A stretch of DNA of 63,573 bases, the filler included, from Actinomycetota bacterium (lineage in GTDB: Bacteria; Actinomycetota; CADDZG01; JAHWKV01; JAOPZY01), in the NCBI GenBank assembly GCA_025963875.1. It is 5 parts of 5 records of this genome, joined end to end, with 100 filler letters (N's around TTAATTAATTAA, not from the genome) between each part and the next. Parts side by side here need not be neighbours in the genome. Positions count along the whole stretch, not along the records: positions 42,876 to 53,543 come from JAOPZY010000241.1; 4 more parts are not named here. One strand, 5' to 3'. Below the pieces are notes generated by a model, which saw only the letters and a program-made list of their open reading frames with translations, was not told the origin of the DNA and made no database searches. A program made the translations under genes and the position numbers. This document shows positions 6,637-53,643 of the stretch, piece after piece. Numbering within the stretch: position 1 is the first letter of the stretch; each line of letters begins with the position of its first letter.

Positions 6637-6736
6637 NNNNNNNNNNNNNNNNNNNNNNNNNNNNNNNNNNNNNNNNNNNNTTAATTAATTAANNNNNNNN
6701 NNNNNNNNNNNNNNNNNNNNNNNNNNNNNNNNNNNN
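6637..6736. other. Artificial contig spacer
   Basis: N-run, TTAATTAATTAA, N-run; 100 bp. Confidence 0.99.
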
Positions 6737-33753: not shown

Positions 33754-33853
33754 NNNNNNNNNNNNNNNNNNNNNNNNNNNNNNNNNNNNNNNNNNNNTTA
33801 ATTAATTAANNNNNNNNNNNNNNNNNNNNNNNNNNNNNNNNNNNNNNNNNNNN
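33754..33853. other. Artificial contig spacer
   Basis: N-run with TTAATTAATTAA. Confidence 0.99.
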
Positions 33854-42775: not shown

Positions 42776-42875
42776 NNNNNNNNNNNNNNNNNNNNNNNNN
42801 NNNNNNNNNNNNNNNNNNNTTAATTAATTAANNNNNNNNNNNNNNNNNNNNNNNNNNNNNNNNNNNNNNNNNNNN
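42776..42875. other. Artificial contig spacer
   Basis: N-run with TTAATTAATTAA. Confidence 0.99.
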
Positions 42876-42877
42876 TG

Positions 42878-42988
42878 GCCGAGGCGGGCGTGCTGCGAGC
42901 CGTCGCCGGGCGTCCGAGCGGCCATACCGCGCTCCGCCAGCGGGAGCAGGAGCTGGTGACCTTCGTCCGCCACGCCTTAGAGCCATAA
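42878..42988 (+). CDS. 3' end of an unidentified gene
   Basis: Open frame from the contig edge: AEAGVLRAVAGRPSGHTALRQREQELVTFVRHALEP*. Confidence 0.4.
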   Translation, partial: AEAGVLRAVAGRPSGHTALRQREQELVTFVRHALEP

Positions 42989-43042
42989 CGGGAGGGCCTT
43001 CCAAAAGTCTCAGGCCATGCTGGGCCACGCTCAGTGGCCGGC

Positions 43043-43069
43043 TTCAGCCGGGTGGACGGCTGCCGACAG
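43043..43069 (+). promoter_or_regulatory. Sigma28 (FliA/WhiG)-like promoter P1
   Basis: TTCA-N15-GCCGACAG. Confidence 0.5.
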
Positions 43070-43120
43070 GAAGATTCTCACGCTGAGTGACGGATTCATC
43101 CAGATACTTCGACGGAACCG

Positions 43121-43147
43121 TTAAGTCCATCCGGCCGGAGCCGACCT
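43121..43147 (+). promoter_or_regulatory. Sigma28 (FliA/WhiG)-like promoter P2
   Basis: TTAA-N15-GCCGACCT; near-identical architecture at 49970. Confidence 0.7.
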
Positions 43148-43195
43148 CGACTCAACACAACGATCCAACACAATCGAATCACGGATGGAATTTCG

Positions 43196-43238
43196 ACGAG
43201 GGAAGGAGCCCTGGCTCTCTTCCCTCGTTTCTTTTTTT
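43196..43238 (+). terminator. Intrinsic terminator just upstream of the flgB RBS
   Basis: Stem ACGAGGGAAG/CTTCCCTCGT with inner GAGC/GCTC, followed by TTCTTTTTTT. Confidence 0.85.
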
Positions 43239-43255
43239 GCAAGAGGAGGCATCAG

Positions 43256-43612
43256 TTGGACGGTATCGCCGACGTGACGATGCAGACCACCCAGTACGCC
43301 CTCAGCGGGCTCGCCCAGCGTGCGAACGCCCGGGCAAACAACATCGCCAACGTGAACACGCCTCAGTTCCGTGCGAAGGGTGTCTCGTTCGAATCGGCCC
43401 TGACAACGGCCCTGGGCAAGGGAGGCGTGCCGGACACCTCGCAGATCTCGACCTTCGACAAGGGCGGGGCCGCCAACCAGCAGGGCAACGACGTGTCGCT
43501 GGAGACCGAGATGTCCGATAGCATCAAGGACAGCCTGACCTACGAGTCGATGGTCAACGGGTTCAACTACAAGGTCAGCGTCCTGCGCCAGGCGATCGGC
43601 GGCAAGCCGTGA
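43256..43612 (+). CDS. flgB: Flagellar basal-body rod protein FlgB
   Basis: ANNIANVNTPQFRAKGVSFE, GNDVSLETEM; GAGGAGG RBS. Confidence 0.92.
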   Translation: MDGIADVTMQTTQYALSGLAQRANARANNIANVNTPQFRAKGVSFESALTTALGKGGVPDTSQISTFDKGGAANQQGNDVSLETEMSDSIKDSLTYESMVNGFNYKVSVLRQAIGGKP

Positions 43613-44022
43613 GCGTCGGTTTCGACACCTTCGACGTGGGCCGATCGGGGCTCACGCTCTCCAAGACCTGGCTCGACACGATCGCCAACAACATTGCCAA
43701 CGTCAACACCGTCCATCCCGCCGGCCAGCAGCCCTTCCGGGCCTCCTACCTCGTGGCCCAGGAGATCGGGCCGGCTCTGCCGGGCCAGAGCGGGCAGGGG
43801 GTCCGCGCGATTGGGCAGGTGGACGACGGGTCGCCGCCGGCCGTGGTTTCCGCACCGGGCAACCCCCTGGCTGACGCCAACGGCAACCTGACGCAGCCCG
43901 TCGTCGACCTCGGTGTCGAGATGACCAACATGATCATGGCCAACCGCTCGTTCCAGGCGAACGGGCGCACGATCGAGACGGCGCGCGACATGTACACGGC
44001 CGCGTTGCGGATCGGAAGGTGA
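43609..44022 (+). CDS. flgC: Flagellar basal-body rod protein FlgC
   Basis: WLDTIANNIANVNT, PGNPLADANG, VDLGVEMTNMIMANRSFQAN. Confidence 0.93.
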   Translation: MSVGFDTFDVGRSGLTLSKTWLDTIANNIANVNTVHPAGQQPFRASYLVAQEIGPALPGQSGQGVRAIGQVDDGSPPAVVSAPGNPLADANGNLTQPVVDLGVEMTNMIMANRSFQANGRTIETARDMYTAALRIGR

Positions 44023-44026
44023 GCTG

Positions 44027-44341
44027 ATGCAGATCCCACCGCTCGGCGCTGTCGCTCCCGTCCGTTCCCCGTTCCGCGCCAGCGGGGCCTCGTCGCCCCT
44101 GGGCGCCGGCGGTGCCCAGGGCTCCAGCTTCGGCGACATGATCACCAAGGGCCTCCAGTCGGTATCCGCCAGCGAGAACAACGCCGACTCGATGGTGCAG
44201 GGCCTGGCCGCCGGCAAGCCGATCCAGGCCGCCGACGTGATGATCGCCACCTCCAAGGCCGGGCTGTCGGTGCAGATGCTCGTCGCCGTCCGGGACCAGG
44301 CGCTCGGCGCCTACAAAGAGATCATGAACATGCAGGTGTGA
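44027..44341 (+). CDS. fliE: Flagellar hook-basal body protein FliE
   Basis: DVMIATSKAGLSVQMLVAVRDQALGAYKEIMNMQV. Confidence 0.93.
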   Translation: MQIPPLGAVAPVRSPFRASGASSPLGAGGAQGSSFGDMITKGLQSVSASENNADSMVQGLAAGKPIQAADVMIATSKAGLSVQMLVAVRDQALGAYKEIMNMQV

Positions 44342-45657
44342 TGGTGGGGACCCTGCTTGCGGACACTTTGCTCACGTCGCTCGCCTCGATGCCGCGCTAC
44401 CGCGCCTACGGCAGCGTCGCCCGGGTCGTCGGCAACGAGGTCGAGATCCGGGGCCTCGCGGTCCGGGTCGGCGACGTCGTCAGCCTCTCCTGCCCCTCCG
44501 GGACACGCCTCGGCGAGATCGTGGCGCTCAGTGCGGAGGGGGCTCGTGCCCTCCTGCTCGGCGACATCGCCGGGATCGGCCGCGGTGACCGGGTGCGGTT
44601 GCGGCCCGACGGGCTCAGCGTCGTCGTCTCGGACGACCTGCTCGGGCGTGTGCTCGATGGGACTGGCGCCCCGCTCGACGGCCGCCCGGCGCCGTCCGGC
44701 ACACCCGTGCGCGTCGAGGCAGCAGTGCCACCGGCCATGGAGCGGCGCCGCATCAACGAGGCGCTGCCGGTCGGCGTCAGGATGATCGACTCTCTCTGCA
44801 CCATCGCCCGCGGCCAGCGGGTCGGCATCTTCGGGGGCTCGGGCGTCGGCAAGTCCACCCTCCTCGGCATGATGGCCCGCGGCACCGCCGCGGATGTCAC
44901 GGTGATGGGCCTCGTCGGCGAGCGAGGCCGGGAGGTCCGCGAGTTCATCGAGGACGACCTGGGCCCGGAGGCCATGAAGCACTCTGTGGTCGTCGCCGCC
45001 ACCTCGGACCAGCCGCCGCTGGTGCGACTCCGTGGGGCCTTCGTCGCTACACGGATCGCCGAGTACTTCGCCGACCGCGGGCTGGACGTGCTGCTCGTGG
45101 TCGACTCGCTCACCCGCCTGGCGATGGCCCAGCGTGAGGTCGGGCTGGCGGCCGGAGAGCCGCCGACGGCCCGCGGCTACACGCCCTCGGTCTTCTCGCT
45201 CCTCCCGCGACTGCTCGAGCGCGCCGGTCCCCGCCCGCTGGGGACCATCACCGCGGTCTACACGGTCCTCGTCGAGGGAGACGACATGAACGAACCCATC
45301 GCCGACGCCGCACGATCGATCCTCGACGGCCACCTCGTGCTCTCACGCCGGCTTGCCGACCACGGCCACTTCCCGGCCCTCGACCCGCTGGGGTCGCTCA
45401 GCCGGCTGGCGCCGCGGGTGACGAGCCCCGACCATCGGGCGAACGCCGGTGCCCTCCGGCGCGCCATCGCCGCGGCCGCAGAAGTCCGGGACCTCGTGGA
45501 GGTGGGGGCCTACGTCCCCGGGACCAACCGGATGGCCGACCTCGGACTCGCCGCCGCCGACGACATCAATGCCTTCCTGCAGCAGGACATGTTCGACAGC
45601 GCCCCCTTTGACGACACCACCCGCCGCCTCGCGCAGCTCGCGGAGCGGTTGGTATGA
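44338..45657 (+). CDS. fliI: Flagellar export ATPase FliI
   Basis: GQRVGIFGGSGVGKSTLL, GERGREVREF, DSLTRLAMAQRE, VLVEGDDMNEPIAD. Confidence 0.96.
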   Translation: MMVGTLLADTLLTSLASMPRYRAYGSVARVVGNEVEIRGLAVRVGDVVSLSCPSGTRLGEIVALSAEGARALLLGDIAGIGRGDRVRLRPDGLSVVVSDDLLGRVLDGTGAPLDGRPAPSGTPVRVEAAVPPAMERRRINEALPVGVRMIDSLCTIARGQRVGIFGGSGVGKSTLLGMMARGTAADVTVMGLVGERGREVREFIEDDLGPEAMKHSVVVAATSDQPPLVRLRGAFVATRIAEYFADRGLDVLLVVDSLTRLAMAQREVGLAAGEPPTARGYTPSVFSLLPRLLERAGPRPLGTITAVYTVLVEGDDMNEPIADAARSILDGHLVLSRRLADHGHFPALDPLGSLSRLAPRVTSPDHRANAGALRRAIAAAAEVRDLVEVGAYVPGTNRMADLGLAAADDINAFLQQDMFDSAPFDDTTRRLAQLAERLV

Positions 45658-46085
45658 GCGCCCGCAACCCGCTCCGGCGCCTCCTTCGCCTCCGGCAGAT
45701 CCGTGAGGACCAGGCGCGCGCCGCGCTGGCGGGAGCCTCCCGGGTCTCCGGAGCTGCCGCCGAACTGCTGGAGGTCCGCACCGAGGAGTACGAGTCGCGC
45801 CCGGGCCTGCCCGAGATGCTCAGCCCCGCCGAGCTGCGGGGCCTGATGTTGCAGGGTGTCCGTTCGCACGAGCTCATGAGCGCCGCCGCCGAGGTCTACG
45901 ACCGAGCCCTCGGCCAGACCGAGGTGGCCCGGCGGGGATGGTCGGCCGCGTCCTCCGAGCTCCGCAGCGCCGAGAAGCTCGACCAGCGCAGGCGCCGGGA
46001 GGCGGATCGCACGGCCCAGGCCGCAGCCGAGCGGGCGCTCGACGAGCTGGTGCTCACCCTGAGGAATCTCCGGCGATGGATCTGA
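45654..46085 (+). CDS. fliJ: Flagellar export chaperone FliJ-like
   Basis: Coiled-coil LRRLLRLRQIREDQA...ALDE directly after fliI. Confidence 0.75.
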   Translation: MSARNPLRRLLRLRQIREDQARAALAGASRVSGAAAELLEVRTEEYESRPGLPEMLSPAELRGLMLQGVRSHELMSAAAEVYDRALGQTEVARRGWSAASSELRSAEKLDQRRRREADRTAQAAAERALDELVLTLRNLRRWI

Positions 46086-46780
46086 CCGCGGTGGCGGACG
46101 CGTCCGCACGAGTTTCTGAGATCAGCCAGCGGGTGGCGTCGCCCTGGTCGTTCGCCTCGGTGCTGAGCCAGGTGTCGCAGGGAGCACCCCTGGACGGGGT
46201 CCAGGCGCAGCCCGACGCCGCCGCCCCCACCTCGGCGGGCAACGATCTCACGTCCTACCTCTTCGGCCAGCGGGTAGGCGCCAGCGCTGCCGGAGGCACG
46301 ACCCGTGGCACGTACGGTGCCGCATCCGTTACGTCGTCCGCCACCGGCAGGACGGCCGCACCGGCCGGCTGGGCCGACGCCCTTCCCGCAGCCGGCCAAC
46401 CGTACGCCGGTGCCATCGATGCCGCAGCCACGAAGGCGGGCATCGACCCCCGGCTGCTCGCCGCCATCACCCAGGCCGAGTCGGGTTTCAACCCCAATGC
46501 CCTCTCCAGTGCCGGGGCGATCGGCCTCACCCAGCTCATGCCGGGCACGGCAGCGGGCCTGGGTGTCAACCCGACCGATCCTGCCGCCAACCTCGACGGG
46601 GGCGCCCGCTACATCGCGGGACAGCTCGACAGCTTCGGCCGCGTCGACCTCGCCCTGGCCGCCTACAACGCCGGCCCTGGAGCAGTCCGCCAGGCCGGTG
46701 GGGTGCCCGATTACCCCGAGACGCAGGCGTACGTCCGCCGCGTCCTTGGCTACTACCAGCAACTTGGAGGAACCCTGTGA
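46076..46780 (+). CDS. Lytic transglycosylase (SLT domain)
   Basis: QAESGFNPNALSSAGAIGLTQLMP, ALAAYNAGPG, ETQAYV. Confidence 0.92.
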   Translation: MDLTAVADASARVSEISQRVASPWSFASVLSQVSQGAPLDGVQAQPDAAAPTSAGNDLTSYLFGQRVGASAAGGTTRGTYGAASVTSSATGRTAAPAGWADALPAAGQPYAGAIDAAATKAGIDPRLLAAITQAESGFNPNALSSAGAIGLTQLMPGTAAGLGVNPTDPAANLDGGARYIAGQLDSFGRVDLALAAYNAGPGAVRQAGGVPDYPETQAYVRRVLGYYQQLGGTL

Positions 46781-48210
46781 GCCTGACCCTCTGCCCGCTT
46801 CCCGCCGCCCCGACCATCCCCGGCGCTCCCCACGCCGCGGCGGCGCCCACCGGTGGCGTCGTGCCCGCCGTGCCCGGACTGGGCACGCCGCTCGTAGCTG
46901 CGACCGAACCGGCGCTGGGTGCCGCAGGGGTGTTCCAGGCGGCGCTGGCCGTGGCGCTGGGGTTGTCCACACCCGGCGTGCCGGTGCCCACCGTGCCCGT
47001 ATCCGGCGTGCCGGTTCCAGGCCTCGTGCCAGGCGTGCCGGTCCCAGGCGTTGCTGTCCCAGGCGTTGCTGTCCCGGTCGTTGCTGTCTCGGTCGCGCCG
47101 GGTGTCCCGGTCGTCCCGGTCCCCGGCGTTGCCGTCCCGGTATTGCCGGTCCCGGTCGTTGCCGTCCCGGTATTGCCGGTCCCGGTTGTACCGGTCCCCG
47201 GCGTTGCCGTCTCGGTCGCGCCGGGCGTCCCGGGCGTCCCGGTCCCCGGCGTTGCCGTCCCGGTATTGCCGGCCCCGGTCGCTCCGGTCCCGGTCGTTGC
47301 CGTTCCGGGCGCCCCCGTGCCCGGTGCCCAGGACCCCGAGGCAGCGGTAACAACGGCACCGCAGGGCGCCGGCCCCAAGGCTCCCAAGGGCCCGAAGGAT
47401 TCCGTTGCAAAGCATCCCGCCGCGGCGGCTGCGGTGACCGCACCGCTCACCGGAGCCGTCCCAGGGAACCCCACCGCGACCCTACCGACGACCCCCGGGC
47501 CAACGTCGAGCGCCACTGGCCCGGCCACGGCCCCCATCGCCGCTGCAGACCCCGGCAAGGGCGCGGCTCCGGCCGCCTCGCCGGCCACGGTCCCCCCGGT
47601 GGTCTCGAAGGGACACCCCCAGGCGTCCACGCCGGGATCGGTGCCGGCGGCCACCGGAGCGTCCGCCGAGGTGCCCGCAGCGTCGGATGAGAAAGCCCCC
47701 GTCCGGGCGGCCGGCGGCCCTGCTCCGGCGAAGGCAGGCCCCGAGCGGACCGATGCGGGGTCTCCGCCCGCCGGCTCCGTCCAGGTGCACACGCCCGGCA
47801 CGACCACCGCGAACACCGCCCCCACCGCTTCCGCCGACCCTGGCCCAAGCGCTCTCGCCCGCCGGGTCATGGAGGCGGTCGCCCAGGTGCGCGACGCTCC
47901 TCCGCCCAACCACATCGTCGTGGACGTGCCCGAGCTCGACGGCATGCGGATGCGGGTCTCGCTCTCGGGATCCACCGTCCACCTCGCCTTCATCGGCGAG
48001 TCCCGCAACCCCGCACAGGGCCGGGGGGTCGGCACGCTCATCCAGGACGTGGCCAGCGGGTTGTCGGATAAAGGGTTGCAGCTCGGCGACGTCTCGACGG
48101 GCGACCGGCAGGCCACCGGGGACCAGAGCCGGGAACCGGCTACCTGGAGGCAGCCGGGCGGTGTCCCCGCCAGCCGCGCCCGATCCCGTCCCGCGGGTCT
48201 CAGGATCTAA
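46777..48210 (+). CDS. fliK: Flagellar hook-length control protein FliK-like
   Basis: Position between SLT and flgD; long low-complexity region followed by a compact C-domain (IVVDVPELDGMRMRVSL...GLQLGDVS); GGAGG RBS and GTGA overlap. Confidence 0.6.
   Translation: MSLTLCPLPAAPTIPGAPHAAAAPTGGVVPAVPGLGTPLVAATEPALGAAGVFQAALAVALGLSTPGVPVPTVPVSGVPVPGLVPGVPVPGVAVPGVAVPVVAVSVAPGVPVVPVPGVAVPVLPVPVVAVPVLPVPVVPVPGVAVSVAPGVPGVPVPGVAVPVLPAPVAPVPVVAVPGAPVPGAQDPEAAVTTAPQGAGPKAPKGPKDSVAKHPAAAAAVTAPLTGAVPGNPTATLPTTPGPTSSATGPATAPIAAADPGKGAAPAASPATVPPVVSKGHPQASTPGSVPAATGASAEVPAASDEKAPVRAAGGPAPAKAGPERTDAGSPPAGSVQVHTPGTTTANTAPTASADPGPSALARRVMEAVAQVRDAPPPNHIVVDVPELDGMRMRVSLSGSTVHLAFIGESRNPAQGRGVGTLIQDVASGLSDKGLQLGDVSTGDRQATGDQSREPATWRQPGGVPASRARSRPAGLRI
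46975..47330 (+). repeat. Degenerate 15-bp (pentapeptide) tandem repeat in fliK
   Basis: Units VPGVP, VPGVA, VPVVA, VPVLP, VSVAP. Confidence 0.85.
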
Positions 48211-48236
48211 CCAATCTCCGGAAAGGAGGTGCAGCA

Positions 48237-48656
48237 ATGATCGGACCAGTCAGTGGGAGCTCGCCGAGCGCCCAGCCGACAACGGGCATCGGGGGAATGG
48301 ACGGCAACTCGTTCCTCAACCTGATGATCGCCCAACTCAAGTACCAGAACCCCTTCCAGCCCATGGATGCCTCGGCCATGATGCAGCAGACCTCGTCCCT
48401 CACCAGCGTGCAGACGCTCCAGGGCCTGTCCGCCCTCCAGAAGGAGATCCTCGGCATGCAGGAGGCGTCGACGGCCACCGGCTTCATCGGCAAGCAGGTG
48501 ACGGCGACCGATGCCACCGGCGCCACCCTGTCGGGCGTCGTCAGCGGCGTCACCTACACCGCGACGGGACCCCTGCTGAAGGTAGCGGGGAGCGACGTCC
48601 CGATTGCAGACATCTCGCAGGCATCGAACGCGCCCGGGAACGGAACCCTGGCCTAA
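48237..48656 (+). CDS. flgD: Flagellar hook capping protein FlgD
   Basis: FLNLMIAQLKYQNPFQPMD, FIGKQVT. Confidence 0.93.
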   Translation: MIGPVSGSSPSAQPTTGIGGMDGNSFLNLMIAQLKYQNPFQPMDASAMMQQTSSLTSVQTLQGLSALQKEILGMQEASTATGFIGKQVTATDATGATLSGVVSGVTYTATGPLLKVAGSDVPIADISQASNAPGNGTLA

Positions 48657-48694
48657 CCCCTCACGGAAGAGATTCAAAGCTAGGAGCTTCAAAG

Positions 48695-49903
48695 ATGATG
48701 CGCTCAATGTTTTCCGGTGTCGCGGGGCTGCGTTCCCACCAGACGATGATGGACGTGGTCGGCAACAACATCGCCAACGTCAACACGGCCGGGTACAAGG
48801 CCTCGGAGGTCACCTTCCAGGAGGCCCTCACGCAGGTGCTCCGTGGCCCGGCGGCAGGCATCAACCCGCTGCAGCTCGGCCTCGGCGTGAAGGTGGCCGC
48901 CATCGACCCCATCTTCACCCAGGGCGCCAGCCAGGTGACGGGGCGTGCCACCGACCTGGCCATCCAAGGCGATGGCTTCTTCGTCGTCCAGCATGGGACT
49001 GCCCAGATCTACACCCGGGCCGGCGCCTTCAGCTTCGACAACGGGGGAAGCCTCGTGACGTCGGACGGCTCCAAGGTCATGGGCTGGGTGGCGGACGCCA
49101 CCGGCAAGGTGGACACGAACACCGCCCTCGCCCCGGTCTCCGTCCCAACCGGCCAGGTGCTTCCGTCCAAGACCACGTCCACCGTCGAGATCGGCGGTAA
49201 CCTCGCGGCGGACGTGGCGGTCGGGACGACGGTGAACAAGTCGATCAGCGTCTACGACTCCATCGGCAAAGTGCACACGCTCGCCGTCGCGTTCACCAAG
49301 ACGGCGGACAACGCCTGGAGTGCCGCGGCCACGCTGGACGGCTCCGCCACGACGTTGACCCCGGCGAGCCTCACGTTCGGGACGAACGGCCTGCTCACCT
49401 CCGCCGGAACCCTGGCGGTGTCGGGATTCACGCCACCCGGTGCCGACCCCATGGCCTTCAACGTCAGCCTCGCGGGAGCTACCCCGCTGGTGCAGTACGG
49501 CGGCGGTTCCACCATCCAGATCATCAGCCAGGACGGCATGCCCATCGGCAACCTCCAGGGAGTCAAGGTGTCCGATGACGGCACCATCACCGGCCAGTTC
49601 TCCAACGGCCTGACCTCCGTGCTGGGACAGATCGCCACGGCGACGTTCGCCAACCCGGCTGGGCTGGTGCGGATCGGCAACTCGGAGTTCACCTCCTCGG
49701 TCGGCTCGGGGCTGGCGCTGACCGGCACGCCCGGGAGCGGGAACCGTGGGGCGCTGTCCGCAGGCGCCCTCGAGATGTCCAACGTGGACCTCGCTCAGGA
49801 GTTCACGAACATGATCATCGCCCAGCGTGGCTTCCAGGCCAACTCACGCGTGATCACCGTCTCGGACGAGATGCTGAACGACCTCGTGAGCCTCAAGCGG
49901 TAG
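48695..49903 (+). CDS. flgE: Flagellar hook protein FlgE
   Basis: MMRSMFSGVAGL...GNNIANVNTAGYK, DLAIQGDGFF, YTRAG, LEMSNVDLAQEFTNMIIAQRGFQAN. Confidence 0.96.
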   Translation: MMRSMFSGVAGLRSHQTMMDVVGNNIANVNTAGYKASEVTFQEALTQVLRGPAAGINPLQLGLGVKVAAIDPIFTQGASQVTGRATDLAIQGDGFFVVQHGTAQIYTRAGAFSFDNGGSLVTSDGSKVMGWVADATGKVDTNTALAPVSVPTGQVLPSKTTSTVEIGGNLAADVAVGTTVNKSISVYDSIGKVHTLAVAFTKTADNAWSAAATLDGSATTLTPASLTFGTNGLLTSAGTLAVSGFTPPGADPMAFNVSLAGATPLVQYGGGSTIQIISQDGMPIGNLQGVKVSDDGTITGQFSNGLTSVLGQIATATFANPAGLVRIGNSEFTSSVGSGLALTGTPGSGNRGALSAGALEMSNVDLAQEFTNMIIAQRGFQANSRVITVSDEMLNDLVSLKR

Positions 49904-49921
49904 CAGCTCGATCTTCTGACA

Positions 49922-49952
49922 CCGGAGGGGCCGCGGGGCCGGGCCCCTCCGG
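49922..49952 (+). terminator. GC-rich hairpin after flgE
   Basis: CCGGAGGGGCC...GGCCCCTCCGG without a U tail. Confidence 0.5.
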
Positions 49953-49969
49953 CCGGGTCCGGTGTGCTC

Positions 49970-49996
49970 TTAAGTCAGGGGCCGTTCGTCCGACCT
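49970..49996 (+). promoter_or_regulatory. Sigma28-like promoter for flbD-motAB
   Basis: TTAA-N15-TCCGACCT; shares TTAAGTC and CCGACCT with 43121-43147. Confidence 0.7.
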
Positions 49997-50007
49997 TGCT
50001 AATCAAC

Positions 50008-50063
50008 GAGCGGCACGGAAGCTGCTCTGCCCAGCCAGACCAACAAACCGCACAAGGAGGTGC
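50008..50063 (+). promoter_or_regulatory. Two CsrA-type GGA-loop hairpins, the second over the RBS
   Basis: GAGCGGC-ACGGAA-GCTGCTC and GCAC-AAGGAG-GTGC. Confidence 0.65.
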
Positions 50064-50067
50064 TCGC

Positions 50068-50418
50068 TTGATTCTTGTCCACCGGCTCCGCGGCGAGCCC
50101 ATGTTCATCAACGAAGACCTGATCGAGTCGATTGAAGCGACGCCGGACACGGTCCTCACCCTGGTGGACGGGCGCAAGATTGTCGTCGCCGACCCGCCCC
50201 AGATGATCGTCGACCGGGCACGCGTGTACCGGGCCTCGGTGCTCGCAGCCACCGACGAACTGCGCTCGCGCAGCGAGGGCGGCGAGGTCCTGCAGTTCCC
50301 CGTCGCCGGCGCAGGAGCGAATTCCGGAGCGAATTCCGGAGCGAATTCTGACCCGAAGGCCGAGTCGAAGGCCGGTTCCCGGGCCTCCGTGCGGCGCCCG
50401 GTCGGGGGGGATCGCTGA
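50068..50418 (+). CDS. flbD: Flagellar FlbD-family protein
   Basis: MILVHRLRGEPMFINEDLIESIEATPDTVLTLVDGRKIVV; 12-bp GANS x3 repeat at 50314-50349. Confidence 0.9.
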   Translation: MILVHRLRGEPMFINEDLIESIEATPDTVLTLVDGRKIVVADPPQMIVDRARVYRASVLAATDELRSRSEGGEVLQFPVAGAGANSGANSGANSDPKAESKAGSRASVRRPVGGDR

Positions 50419-51218
50419 TGGCTCCCGTCGCCATCGGCATGTTCCTGGCACTGGGGGCACTCCTCTTTGCCGCGGTCCTCGAGAAGATCAACATGATGGC
50501 CCTGATCGCCCCCTCGCCGATGATCCTGGTGTTCGTCGGCAGCCTGGGCGCCACCTTCATCGCCTACAAGACCAAGGAGTGGAAGCGCATCCCGAAGGTG
50601 CTCGGCGTGGCGCTGAAGGGCAAGGTCCCCGACCCCGACGAGCTGGTCACCACGTTCGCCCACTTCGCCGACGTCGCCCGCAAGGAGGGCATGCTGGCCC
50701 TGGAGAGCGAGATCGGCAAGCTCGAGGACCCCTTCCTCAAGACCGGTTTGCAGCTTGTCATCGATGGCGTCGACGGCGAGCAGGTCCGGGAGGTCCTGGA
50801 GGTCGAGATCGAGTCGCTGACCCACCGCCACCACGACATGGCACAGTTCTTCCTCACCCTGGGCGGGTTCGCCCCCACCTTCGGGCTCATGGGCACCATC
50901 GTGGGGCTCATCGGCGTCCTGCGCGACCTGTCCGACCCGACCAAGCTCGGCAAGGGGATGGCGCTGGGGCTGCTCGGCACGCTCTGGGGCGTCATCGCTG
51001 CCAACCTCTTCTTCATGCCGATCGGCACGAAGCTGAACCGCCTGCACGACGCGGAGGTCGCCGTGCGCCGCATCGCCATCGAGGGCGTCCTCGGTATCCG
51101 TGAGGGCATGGCCAGCCGCATCCTGGTGGAGCGGCTGGAGGCACGCCTCAGCCCGGAACTGCGCAAGGGACACACCGGCCGGGCCGGCAAGTCGGCAGCT
51201 CCGCCGGTGGCCGCCTGA
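50418..51218 (+). CDS. motA: Flagellar stator MotA
   Basis: ARKEGMLALE, GLQLVIDG, APTFGLMGTIVGLI, GTLWG, ANLFFMPIGTKL. Confidence 0.95.
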   Translation: MAPVAIGMFLALGALLFAAVLEKINMMALIAPSPMILVFVGSLGATFIAYKTKEWKRIPKVLGVALKGKVPDPDELVTTFAHFADVARKEGMLALESEIGKLEDPFLKTGLQLVIDGVDGEQVREVLEVEIESLTHRHHDMAQFFLTLGGFAPTFGLMGTIVGLIGVLRDLSDPTKLGKGMALGLLGTLWGVIAANLFFMPIGTKLNRLHDAEVAVRRIAIEGVLGIREGMASRILVERLEARLSPELRKGHTGRAGKSAAPPVAA

Positions 51219-52108
51219 TGTCCGGTGGCGGCGGGGCCGACTCGCGCTGGCTGATCACGTACGGGGACCTCGTGACCCTGCTGATGGCGTTCTTCATTGC
51301 CCTCTACGGCATCTCGCATTCGGACCAGAAGAAGTTCCAGGAGTTCCTGAAGGGCCTGGGACCGTTCGGCAACGCTGCGGCCGCGAACACCGGCATCCTC
51401 AAGGGTGGCCCGAGCATCGTCGGTGCTGGCACCGGCGTCGGCAACGCCAAGTCCGGGTCGGCAGCCGTCGGGGGGTCCGGCGTCTCGGCCACGGGCTCGT
51501 CTGCCGGCTCGGCCGGCGGCGCGGGTACTGGCTCGGCCATCAGCGCCGTCACCAGGGCGGCCCTCGCCGGTGCCTCCAGCGGGGCCACGACCGCGGTCCT
51601 CAGCGGGGGTATCACCCCGGGCGTCCATGCCGGGCAGTCGGACCTGGCAGCGGTGGCCTACCACATCCAGCAGGGCCTGCAGGCACAGGGCTTCGGCAGC
51701 GCGGTCACCTTCACCGTCGAAAGTCGTGGGCTCGTCGCGACCATCGCCACCGACCACGTCCTGTTCGACTCGGGCTCGCCGCACATCAGCCCCTCGGGCG
51801 AGCGGATCATCGGCGCCATCGGGAGCACGCTCGCGCGGCTCTCGAACCCGGTGCTGATCGAGGGCCACACCGACAACGTCCCGCTCAACAGCAACGGCTA
51901 CACCAACTGGAACCTCTCGACCGACCGCGCGGTGGCAGTCCTGCAGATCCTCCAGAGCGGTTACGCCATCACCCCGACCAGGCTCTCGGCCGCCGGCTAC
52001 GGCGAATTCCACCCGGCAGCCTCCGACGCGACGCCCGAGGGCCGGGCCGCCAACCGGCGGGTCGAGATCGTGATCCTCACCGATCCATCCACCCCCGCCG
52101 CACCCTAA
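51218..52108 (+). CDS. motB: Flagellar stator MotB
   Basis: WLITYGDLVTLLMAFF, IEGHTDN, NWNLSTDRA, NRRVEI. Confidence 0.95.
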   Translation: MSGGGGADSRWLITYGDLVTLLMAFFIALYGISHSDQKKFQEFLKGLGPFGNAAAANTGILKGGPSIVGAGTGVGNAKSGSAAVGGSGVSATGSSAGSAGGAGTGSAISAVTRAALAGASSGATTAVLSGGITPGVHAGQSDLAAVAYHIQQGLQAQGFGSAVTFTVESRGLVATIATDHVLFDSGSPHISPSGERIIGAIGSTLARLSNPVLIEGHTDNVPLNSNGYTNWNLSTDRAVAVLQILQSGYAITPTRLSAAGYGEFHPAASDATPEGRAANRRVEIVILTDPSTPAAP

Positions 52109-52132
52109 CGACCAGGAAAGACAGGAGTCACC

Positions 52133-52603
52133 ATGGCAAAAGACAAAGCCGCCGCCCAGGAGGGGGACGTCAAGAAAAAGGGCAAGGGCAAGATCATCAT
52201 CATCCTCGTGGTCGTGCTGGTCGCCGGGATCGGGGCGAAGTTCACCGTCCTTTCGGGCGGCAAGGCCAGCGGCAAGGCGACGGCGACCCCCGCCCCGACG
52301 CCAACGCCGGGGGTGGTGATCGACCTGGGCACCATGACGATCAACCTCGCAGATCCGGGGCGCTACGCCCTCGTGGGCCTCGCGGTCGAGCTTGGCCCGA
52401 CCGGGACCGCCGAGAAATTCACGCCCGAGATGCCCTTGCTGAAAGACGCGACGGTCCGCAAGCTCGCCGGTTGGACCGCAGCGAGGCTGCTGTCGACGAC
52501 CGGCCAGGAAGACGTGCGGACCCAGCTCACCGACCAGGCCCAGCAGCTCTTCGGAAAGGATTCGGTCGTCAAGGTACTGCTCACCGAGCTCATCGTGCAG
52601 TAG
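52133..52603 (+). CDS. fliL: Flagellar basal body-associated protein FliL
   Basis: Lys-rich N-terminus with TM, TINLAD, C-terminal VLLTELIVQ. Confidence 0.9.
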   Translation: MAKDKAAAQEGDVKKKGKGKIIIILVVVLVAGIGAKFTVLSGGKASGKATATPAPTPTPGVVIDLGTMTINLADPGRYALVGLAVELGPTGTAEKFTPEMPLLKDATVRKLAGWTAARLLSTTGQEDVRTQLTDQAQQLFGKDSVVKVLLTELIVQ

Positions 52604-52633
52604 ACGGGCGTCCCACTTCGTAGCCGGTTCCCC

Positions 52634-52660
52634 TTGACTAGGCGACGTCGCGGCCGACTA
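52634..52660 (+). promoter_or_regulatory. Sigma28-like promoter upstream of fliM
   Basis: TTGA-N15-GCCGACTA. Confidence 0.5.
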
Positions 52661-52704
52661 CCCCAAATGAAGGCCGTGATGCCCGAGCTTGGGAGGCGAC
52701 ACCG

Positions 52705-53543
52705 TTGGAGACCGGAATTCTGGAGGCAGGCGGGGCTGCGCCCGGCCAGGCCCATCCCGCCACGGTCACGCGCGCCGACGATCGTCCGTGGTTCGAGCTC
52801 CGCCGCTCCGACGTCCTGACGCCGGAGCAGGTCGGCATCATCCGGGAGCTCCACCGGGGTTTCTCGCGCGAGGTCGGCCGCCGGGCCGGGAACGCGCTCC
52901 GCACCCTGGTACAGGTGTCGGCGACCGACGCCCAGCAGCGCCCCTACCGCTCCTTCGCCACCCGCATCGCGGTGCCGTGCATCGTCGCCCCCGTCAGTCT
53001 CGACCCGCTCCCCGGGGCCCTCGTCATCGCGATGCCCGGGCAGGCGGCGTTGTGCCTCGTGGACCGCCTGATGGGCGGCGACGGCCGAGCCTGTCCCGCG
53101 CGCGTCCCCACGGACCTGGAGATGCTGCTGATCGCCGACTTCCTCCAGCCCCTCCTCGTGCCGCTCACCGAGGCGTTCGAACCCGTGGTGGCCATCCGGC
53201 CCTCCCTCACCGCCATCGAGACCAACCCCGCCCTGCTCCGGGTCATCCCGGCGGCCGACATGACGTTGGTGCTGCCACTGGTCCTCACCTTCCCGGGCGC
53301 ACCCATGCCGGACGCCGTCCTCAGTCTCTGCTACCCCGTCACGACGCTGCGAGCGGCGTTCGAGCTGCTCGATCCCGGCGCAGGGCAGGAGCCACCTGTG
53401 GAGCTTCCCTTCGCCGCAGGGATGAGCTCCCAGCTCTCGCACGTGGATGTCGATCTCTCCGTGCACCTCAAGCCCTCACCCATCCCCGCCGGCGACATCG
53501 TCGGCCTCCGGATCGGCGACGTGCTCCGCCTCGACCACAAGAC
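52705..53543 (+). CDS. fliM: Flagellar motor switch protein FliM (divergent, truncated by contig end)
   Basis: FELRRSDVLTPEQ..., VDRLMGGDG, PTDLE, IETNP, LCYP, LRIGDVLRLDH. Confidence 0.85.
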
Positions 53544-53643
53544 NNNNNNNNNNNNNNNNNNNNNNNNNNNNNNNNNNNNNNNNNNNNTTAATTAATTAAN
53601 NNNNNNNNNNNNNNNNNNNNNNNNNNNNNNNNNNNNNNNNNNN
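53544..53643. other. Artificial contig spacer
   Basis: N-run with TTAATTAATTAA. Confidence 0.99.

Follow-up and report, generated by a model that had tools for sequence, protein, structure and literature searches.

In Escherichia coli, CsrA binds at two sites close to the flhDC leader's 5' end and blocks RNase E, and in the pgaA leader it remodels a hairpin and changes transcription termination, which is Rho-dependent there and promoted by CsrA (PMC7652899, in excerpt). The partner switch between CsrA and FliW is described as a control of flagellin, as in the hag leader of Bacillus subtilis, in the excerpts of PMC7652899 and PMC2587704. The E. coli small RNA MotR is made from the 5' untranslated region (UTR) of motA, where one sigma-28 promoter yields a short terminated RNA and read-through of the terminator gives the full operon message (PMC10578931, in excerpt). 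CsrB, RsmY and RsmZ are GGA-rich, terminator-ended small RNAs that titrate CsrA. Here we analysed the DNA preceding flgB in a metagenome-assembled genome of an uncultured soil actinobacterium (G000; 273 contigs, 3.84 Mb, 94.6% complete), using a window of 63,573 nucleotides (nt), filler included, to which all positions refer. An earlier note on positions 43043-43238 had proposed either a CsrA-sponge small RNA or a CsrA-responsive attenuator. Judged from its sequence, the region 43121-43255 comprises the promoter of the flgB-flgC-fliE-fliI-fliJ operon and its 5' leader, and we favour reading this leader as a CsrA-bound cis-acting element, possibly an attenuator, with a probability of about 45%.

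Among the readings of the earlier note, a CsrA-responsive cis element would fit best, because csrA, fliW and the sigma factor are encoded in the genome, the promoter P2 is shared, two conserved ANGGA motifs lie 21-22 nt apart, an AAGGAG loop is predicted in the nascent RNA, and leaders with twin GGA loops occur in other Actinobacteria. What appears to be new at this locus, as the best fit to these observations, is the fusion of the putative CsrA-type sites of a flagellar leader to a terminator-like hairpin.

Probable promoter of the flgB operon

FlgB was searched in 61 related genomes, 16 of them unpublished (all 16 negative), and was found only in G000 and in G001, a genome of the same genus. 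With FlgB in just these two of the 61, unpublished ones included, flagella look patchy in the lineage. When the 272-nt intergenic DNA was compared with the same 61 genomes, the only real match was in G001 (E 7.5e-11), the other matches having E values of 0.0045 or more and being discarded as chance. A FlgB search of public genomes and metagenomes added five more close loci (69-81% identity), three of them with the full upstream region and one with a partial one (L128). The alignment used below consists of five full flgB upstream regions, from this species and four relatives.

A promoter of the sigma-28 (FliA/WhiG) type, P2, is located on the plus strand at 43121-43147, with TTAAG at 43121-43125, 14 nt, and GCCGACCT at 43140-43147, and its pattern resembles the sigma-28 consensus. 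Across the five upstream regions the GCCGACC box was invariant and TTAAG was kept in four (L127 has TTAAC), while the 14-nt spacer varied, as is characteristic of a genuine promoter. The strict pattern TTAAG-N14-GCCGA had three matches in 7.7 Mb (whole genome, both strands); these precede flgB, fliF (contig C231) and flagellin (contig C210), all in the correct orientation, and the fliF and flagellin promoters and leaders were also kept in G001. The genome encodes, on contig C170, a sigma factor of the FliA/WhiG type (FliA_WhiG, TIGR02479; 281 bits against a cut-off of 189.6), and a second sigma gene (151 bits) was found on the flagellar contig. Since the boxes are conserved, the three genome-wide matches are all flagellar and sigma genes are encoded, P2 very probably drives the flgB operon, and one promoter type (P2, fliF, flagellin) very probably serves early and late flagellar genes alike. 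A similar promoter was found about 95-108 nt upstream of flgB in many other Actinomycetota.

All the features that the earlier note described are present, its two sigma-28-like promoter sites included, of which only P2 is conserved and matched at three flagellar operons. P1, a weaker sigma-28-like match on the plus strand at about 43046-43072 (TTCAG, 14 nt, GCCGACAG), was seen in this species only; it lies within about 100 nt that the four relatives lack, and no conservation backs it. It was present in DNA contigs of three soil runs, with T>C at 43053. Runs X1-X19 indicate that the organism is widespread. As a species-specific observation, positions 43040-43060 in the P1 stretch can pair over about 17 bp with 43127-43146 in the P2 spacer in the predicted fold, which is possible only in transcripts coming from tetR, the gene upstream.

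A pattern scan of 42877-44400 detected no sigma-70-like site. The gap between the T-tract that follows the hairpin described below and the flgB ribosome-binding site is about 4 nt, and in the relatives this gap is a variable spacer of 30-50 nt, which is not conserved. Given this short gap, the unconserved spacer and the lack of any other promoter pattern, transcripts of flgB must cross the hairpin, and there is no room after it for a separate flgB promoter, which indicates a cis leader and not a separate small RNA gene.

Hairpin, T-tract and ribosome-binding site

A terminator-like hairpin of 14 pairs with one bulge, also found as an inverted repeat, occupies 43196-43228 on the plus strand (5' arm 43196-43209, 4-nt loop 43210-43213, 3' arm 43214-43228). 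It is followed by a T-tract with 9 T of 10 at 43229-43238 on the same strand, as read from the sequence, and then by the ribosome-binding site and start codon of flgB (43243-43258, plus strand; GAGGAGG at 43243-43249, TTG at 43256), the AGGAGG box and the TTG being invariant in 6/6 sequences. The locus has the makeup of an intrinsic terminator, that is, a stable G+C-rich hairpin followed directly by a U-tract, and the strong terminator that had been placed a few nt before the flgB ribosome-binding site is well founded as a terminator-like structure: the 87-nt RNA from about 43155 to 43241 folded at -29.1 kcal/mol (z -3.74), and 1/200 shuffles was as good. The two GGA motifs that had been reported in the 5' arm are also there, as AGGGA and AAGGA, the second being candidate CsrA site 2 (43203-43207). 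The 5' arm occurs in a single copy in the genome when searched at up to 3 mismatches.

Until the 3' arm has been transcribed, the RNA is predicted to fold as AGGG-[AAGGAG]-CCCU, a 4-bp stem that presents AAGGAG in its loop. The T-tract complements the purine-rich ribosome-binding site (43229-43249), with which it is paired in the fold predicted for the read-through RNA; perhaps this reflects no more than pyrimidine-purine complementarity. A simple terminator pattern scanner did not list the hairpin because it allows no bulge, and terminator pattern scans of two 20-kb stretches were uninformative, with 7 and 3 sites where 5.9 and 6.5 would be expected.

The same structure could belong to an ordinary leader with no role for CsrA, in which hairpin and T-tract would be the terminator of tetR, an insulator or a stabiliser of the message, P2 would read through at a fixed rate, and the GGA motifs would arise incidentally from a stem rich in purines and from a strong ribosome-binding site. 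We regard this explanation as rather unlikely, and it is the main rival of the CsrA-bound leader, ahead of the sponge and of a MotR-like RNA. It is favoured by the position of tetR, which is co-directional with flgB and ends 105-210 nt before the hairpin in 5/5 genomes, and by the use of canonical terminators in this genome, where 48 of 244 T-rich sites had a hairpin of -15 kcal/mol or better ending no more than 4 nt away. However, the promoter is upstream of the hairpin in 5/5 genomes, so that every flgB transcript passes through it.

One RNA-library contig was identical to the window over 43227-43694, a region that comprises the T-tract and flgB and reaches 86 nt into flgC. At its upstream end it bore 15 letters that do not fit the window, 12 of which are presumably the end of a sequencing adapter, suggesting that the contig ends where a fragment ended, at the 3' foot of the hairpin. 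Such an end is consistent with read-through and a subsequent stop of reverse transcription or a cut, assembled contigs being unable to show transcript starts or ends. Positions 43140-43226 were uncovered in RNA run X20, which counts neither way.

GGA motifs and conservation of the leader

The six ANGGA motifs of the earlier note were exact, at 43090, 43112, 43181, 43185, 43199 and 43203. Dinucleotide shuffles of 43043-43238 averaged 1.55 motifs (sd 1.18), six being reached in 5 of 2000; among fixed 196-nt windows of the genome, six motifs were present in 5 of 38,956. This density is exceptional for the genome, which argues against the ordinary leader. With sliding windows, 17 regions of the genome reached six motifs, and all five of those inspected overlapped long open frames. 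The densest region (contig C78, 3151-3563; 11 motifs in 200 nt) codes for an Ala/Lys/Glu repeat protein and not for an RNA, and motif density was rejected as a means of finding sponges.

A stand-alone small RNA titrating CsrA, in the manner of CsrB, RsmY or RsmZ, would share with them the richness in GGA and the terminator-like end, and six ANGGA in 196 nt, a promoter and a csrA gene in the genome speak in its favour. Nevertheless, only three of the six motifs were conserved, judged on the four relatives with a full leader, and the P2 transcript contains four in this species and three in the relatives, far fewer than in the known sponges. No ANGGA occupies a hairpin loop of the stable fold, and two sit in its stem. 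A search of Rfam 15 at E values up to 10 returned only RAGATH-10, on the other strand and at 13.7 bits (threshold 41.2), and no Csr/Rsm family. Moreover, FliW is encoded next to csrA as a protein antagonist, and flgB depends on transcription through the element, which is not an independent gene. The sponge proposed in the earlier note is consequently very improbable.

Conservation of the GGA motifs, whose lack would have refuted that note by its own terms, was found for half of them. ACGGA at 43181, AGGGA and AAGGA were kept in the relatives, whereas ACGGA at 43090, ACGGA at 43112 and ATGGA at 43185 were not, the last one being found in 0/4 relatives. Candidate CsrA site 1 is the conserved CACGGA(T/C) at 43180-43186 on the plus strand, in which ACGGA was invariant in 5/5 leaders and the flanks varied, a conserved island that speaks against the ordinary leader; AAGGA of site 2 was kept in the same five. 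Their GGA triplets, at 43183 and 43205, are 22 nt apart (21 nt in L125; both counted by eye), and at least two conserved GGA sites, ACGGA and AAGGA, are within reach of one CsrA dimer in all five leaders. The TGA-CGGAT-TCA loop that had been pointed out is closed by a stem of only 3 bp and proves nothing. A leader peptide was considered and rejected, the sole ATG of the leader (43185) being missing from the relatives.

When the five upstream regions were aligned, the stretch after the tetR stop was not conserved, and about 100 nt that include P1 and ACGGA 43090 were unique to this species. Conservation begins slightly upstream of P2, which is followed by a short A/C-rich segment, the invariant CACGGA, the hairpin, a T-rich tail, and the ribosome-binding site with its TTG. 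The duplication mentioned in the earlier note is real and consists of a 13-nt tandem pair, CAACACAA, on the plus strand at 43148-43173 (copies 43148-43160 and 43161-43173, 85% alike); the relatives carry a single copy of the unit, and the duplication is specific to this species.

The hairpin was kept in the five full leaders and in the partial one of L128. Its conservation is uneven: an unbroken run of 23 columns, which starts one base ahead of the hairpin and extends through the 5' arm and the loop to the fourth base of the 3' arm, was invariant, whereas about 5 of the remaining 12-13 columns of the 3' arm varied, mostly as C/T opposite G. The chance that five variable columns among 36 all fall within the 13 is about 0.003 by simple arithmetic, the columns not being independent. 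An invariant 5' side facing a drifting 3' arm is not what the ordinary leader would lead one to expect, and points to a probable sequence constraint on the purine-rich arm beyond pairing.

The conserved A/C-rich 5' segment, which is unpaired, could be the pairing seed of an RNA of about 85 nt that would arise by premature termination from P2 and act in trans by base pairing, with read-through feeding the operon. This design is that of MotR, and the locus has the same architecture, in which a sigma-28-type promoter is followed by a short leader, a terminator-like hairpin and a flagellar operon. We consider it improbable here. MotR base-pairs in a Gammaproteobacterium, whereas both the trans target and the short RNA are hypothetical at this locus, no target having been found, though none was sought. 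Furthermore, the element with the terminator-like hairpin is known from one genus only.

CsrA, FliW and the other two flagellar leaders

All three genes whose search had been suggested in the earlier note, csrA, fliW and fliA, were found, the last as a gene of the FliA/WhiG type. CsrA (88.9 bits) and FliW (110.6 bits) are encoded by adjacent genes at the end of an operon of the order fliF-fliG-fliH...flgK-flgL-fliW-csrA, and csrA was found in G001 as well. The fliF-fliG-fliH genes are on another contig than flgB (L205, 2584-9293), in the same string as flgK-flgL-fliW-csrA, and early and late genes share this operon.

The fliF leader (contig C231, L205 2472-2590) has the same promoter type as flgB and two adjacent hairpins with GGA in their loops, and was almost identical in G001. 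In the flagellin leader (contig C210, L035, minus strand, 255-375), also kept in G001, a hairpin with an AAGGAA loop is combined with an AAGGAGG ribosome-binding site, which on inspection is the classic layout of a putative CsrA target. Operons with the same promoter type as flgB thus display GGA in loops, another point against the ordinary leader. With its adjacent fliW and csrA, and a flagellin leader that has a GGA loop and a GGA in the ribosome-binding site, this genome resembles the B. subtilis hag system as it appears in the excerpts of PMC7652899 and PMC2587704; the difference is that the element studied here precedes early rod genes and not flagellin.

Twin-hairpin leaders in other Actinomycetota

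At 150 flgB loci with sufficient DNA upstream, most of which are actinobacterial (nearly all of those that carry a name), the 170 nt before flgB were examined. Two tandem hairpins that carry GGA in their loops were found in 72 of the 150, compared with 38 of 1668 control windows taken from these loci, and they are located at the 5' end of the flgB leader in many flagellated Actinomycetota. In the 58 distinct sequences (loci L046-L181), A-x-G-G-A was invariant in loop 2 and nearly so in loop 1, and the letters after GGA varied. An invariant A-N-GGA with variable following letters would suit a factor that reads A-N-GGA better than it would suit pairing between loops.

A covariance model of the twin hairpin, R1, found one strong copy per genome, always in the flgB leader, in 5/5 complete genomes, with scores of 53-60 bits and a next best score of 27 bits or less; csrA is encoded in all five. 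Matches of R1 in G064 and G065 (25-27 bits) were treated as chance, appearing to be coding on reading, with no formal check of open reading frames. A scan of the phylum gave 0 of 151 genomes at E values up to 1e-5; it scored only 38 candidates per genome, with stricter filters, on a set that contained no known positive, and so says nothing on distribution.

The twin-hairpin leader corresponds to no family of Rfam 15, and the literature listings turned up neither a description of it nor flgB as a CsrA target. The Kineococcus genome paper predicts only a flagellin CsrA site, in the excerpt at hand (PMC2587704).

Covariation in the 58 leaders was no greater than in controls, with 81.9% of cells paired compared with 81.1% in shuffles, and 63 of 500 shuffles were as high; the stems are too conserved for covariation, and MAFFT left the two registers of hairpin 2 unseparated. 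Slid controls of the alignment paired in 41.4% of cells or fewer. The predicted structure rests on conserved self-complementarity.

The leader studied here and the twin-hairpin leaders are alike in lying between a sigma-28-type promoter and flgB in genomes with csrA, and in carrying two A-N-GGA motifs about 21 nt apart (21 in a canonical leader and 22 here, counted by eye). They differ in that the flgB leader here has no two small stable hairpins and is not matched by R1. Its site 1 is unpaired and its site 2 is inside the 5' arm of a long hairpin followed by a T-tract, a structure that the canonical leaders lack. R1 had no match in the leaders of L045, L125, L126 and L127.

Proposed mechanism

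Under the favoured reading, that of a CsrA-bound cis leader, P2 would start transcription near 43155, and the resulting leader of about 100 nt would present ACGGA (43181) and AAGGA (43203) as CsrA sites, to both of which a CsrA dimer might bind on the nascent RNA. If CsrA were absent, the full hairpin would form and many transcripts would stop near 43236-43239, giving an RNA of about 85 nt. If CsrA occupied the 5' arm, the terminator would not form and the polymerase would read into flgB. The same anatomy would also fit a leader that represses flgB translation via the ribosome-binding site or one that stabilises the message.

A more specific version, which we hold to be decidedly unlikely as a whole, makes CsrA an antiterminator at an intrinsic terminator, holding ACGGA and AAGGAG, with an early/late switch through FliW. 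Free CsrA, abundant before hook completion, would favour the early genes and repress flagellin, and FliW, set free once the hook is complete, would undo both effects. If this were true, an early/late switch would operate on RNA, with no sigma-factor cascade involved.

Several observations weigh against a CsrA-bound leader. CsrA binding, the start site and termination are all predictions from the DNA sequence. Purine-rich leaders and ribosome-binding sites hold GGA in any case; site 2 is paired in the stable fold, the small AAGGAG loop scored no better than shuffles (z -0.27 to -0.28), and site 1 was outside any hairpin in the relatives. R1 did not recognise the flgB leader here, its best hit being of 4.0 bits (E 7.7), on CACGGATGG alone (model positions 31-39, contig C237). 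The covariation that the earlier note had suggested as a check across flgB upstream regions did not appear, as 0 of 18 pairs in the leaders of the genus had a compensatory double change. The T-tracts of the relatives are weaker, with 5-7 T in the first 11 positions after the stem and broken by G or C, suggesting that termination may be poor there. The RNA contig could be contaminating DNA, and its upstream end could be a stop of reverse transcription. Finally, the five leaders are closely related to one another (FlgB 75-81% identical), and their shared arrangement may be simple inheritance. The ordinary leader gains from four of these points, namely the lack of compensatory changes, of a significant small GGA loop and of an R1 match, and the weak T-tracts of the relatives.

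As a CsrA-bound leader, the element would resemble that of flhDC in its two CsrA-type sites, in its place in the 5' leader of the top operon of flagellar assembly and in the possibility of positive control. It differs from flhDC in organism, promoter type and sequence, and in that its candidate site 2 overlaps a terminator-like hairpin. With the pgaA leader it would have in common a competition of CsrA binding with an RNA hairpin, by which termination changes. Here, in contrast, CsrA would act against an intrinsic terminator, a combination not named in the excerpt of PMC7652899. If the reading is true, this genus presents a docking site merged with a terminator, which is not among the CsrA mechanisms in the excerpts of PMC7652899 and PMC2587704. 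More generally, if CsrA docks on early flagellar leaders in Actinomycetota, the CsrA-FliW switch would reach the genes of the basal body.

Genomic setting of the leader

The window joins contigs C234, C235, C236, C237 and C240, with joints at 6637-6736, 33754-33853, 42776-42875 and 53544-53643 that are runs of N with a 12-base linker between, and genes flanking a joint are not shown to be neighbours. The element is near the start of contig C237 (window 42876-53543), 168-363 bases in.

The upstream gene is incomplete because the contig begins inside it. The last 37 codons of this TetR-family regulator, truncated by the contig start, were located at 42877-42988 on the plus strand (stop at 42986-42988). 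The fragment aligned with the end of a complete gene in G001, whose product has a TetR_N domain (57.9 bits, Pfam), and tetR was upstream of flgB in all four relatives having enough upstream DNA.

Downstream, the first genes of the operon, flgB-flgC-fliE-fliI-fliJ, occupy 43256-46085 on the plus strand and were assigned with Pfam. FlgB matched Flg_bb_rod at 21.2 bits, FlgC matched Flg_bbr_C and Flg_bb_rod, FliE matched the FliE domain at 83.9 bits, and FliI matched ATP-synt_ab at 285.5 bits together with T3SS_ATPase_C; the match of FliJ was weak (23.1 bits, under its Pfam cut-off). The gene order is unusual, with fliI-fliJ directly after flgB-flgC-fliE. Downstream of fliJ, an open frame of 477 residues at 46777-48210, rich in Pro/Val/Gly/Ala repeats, may encode a hook-length or scaffold protein.

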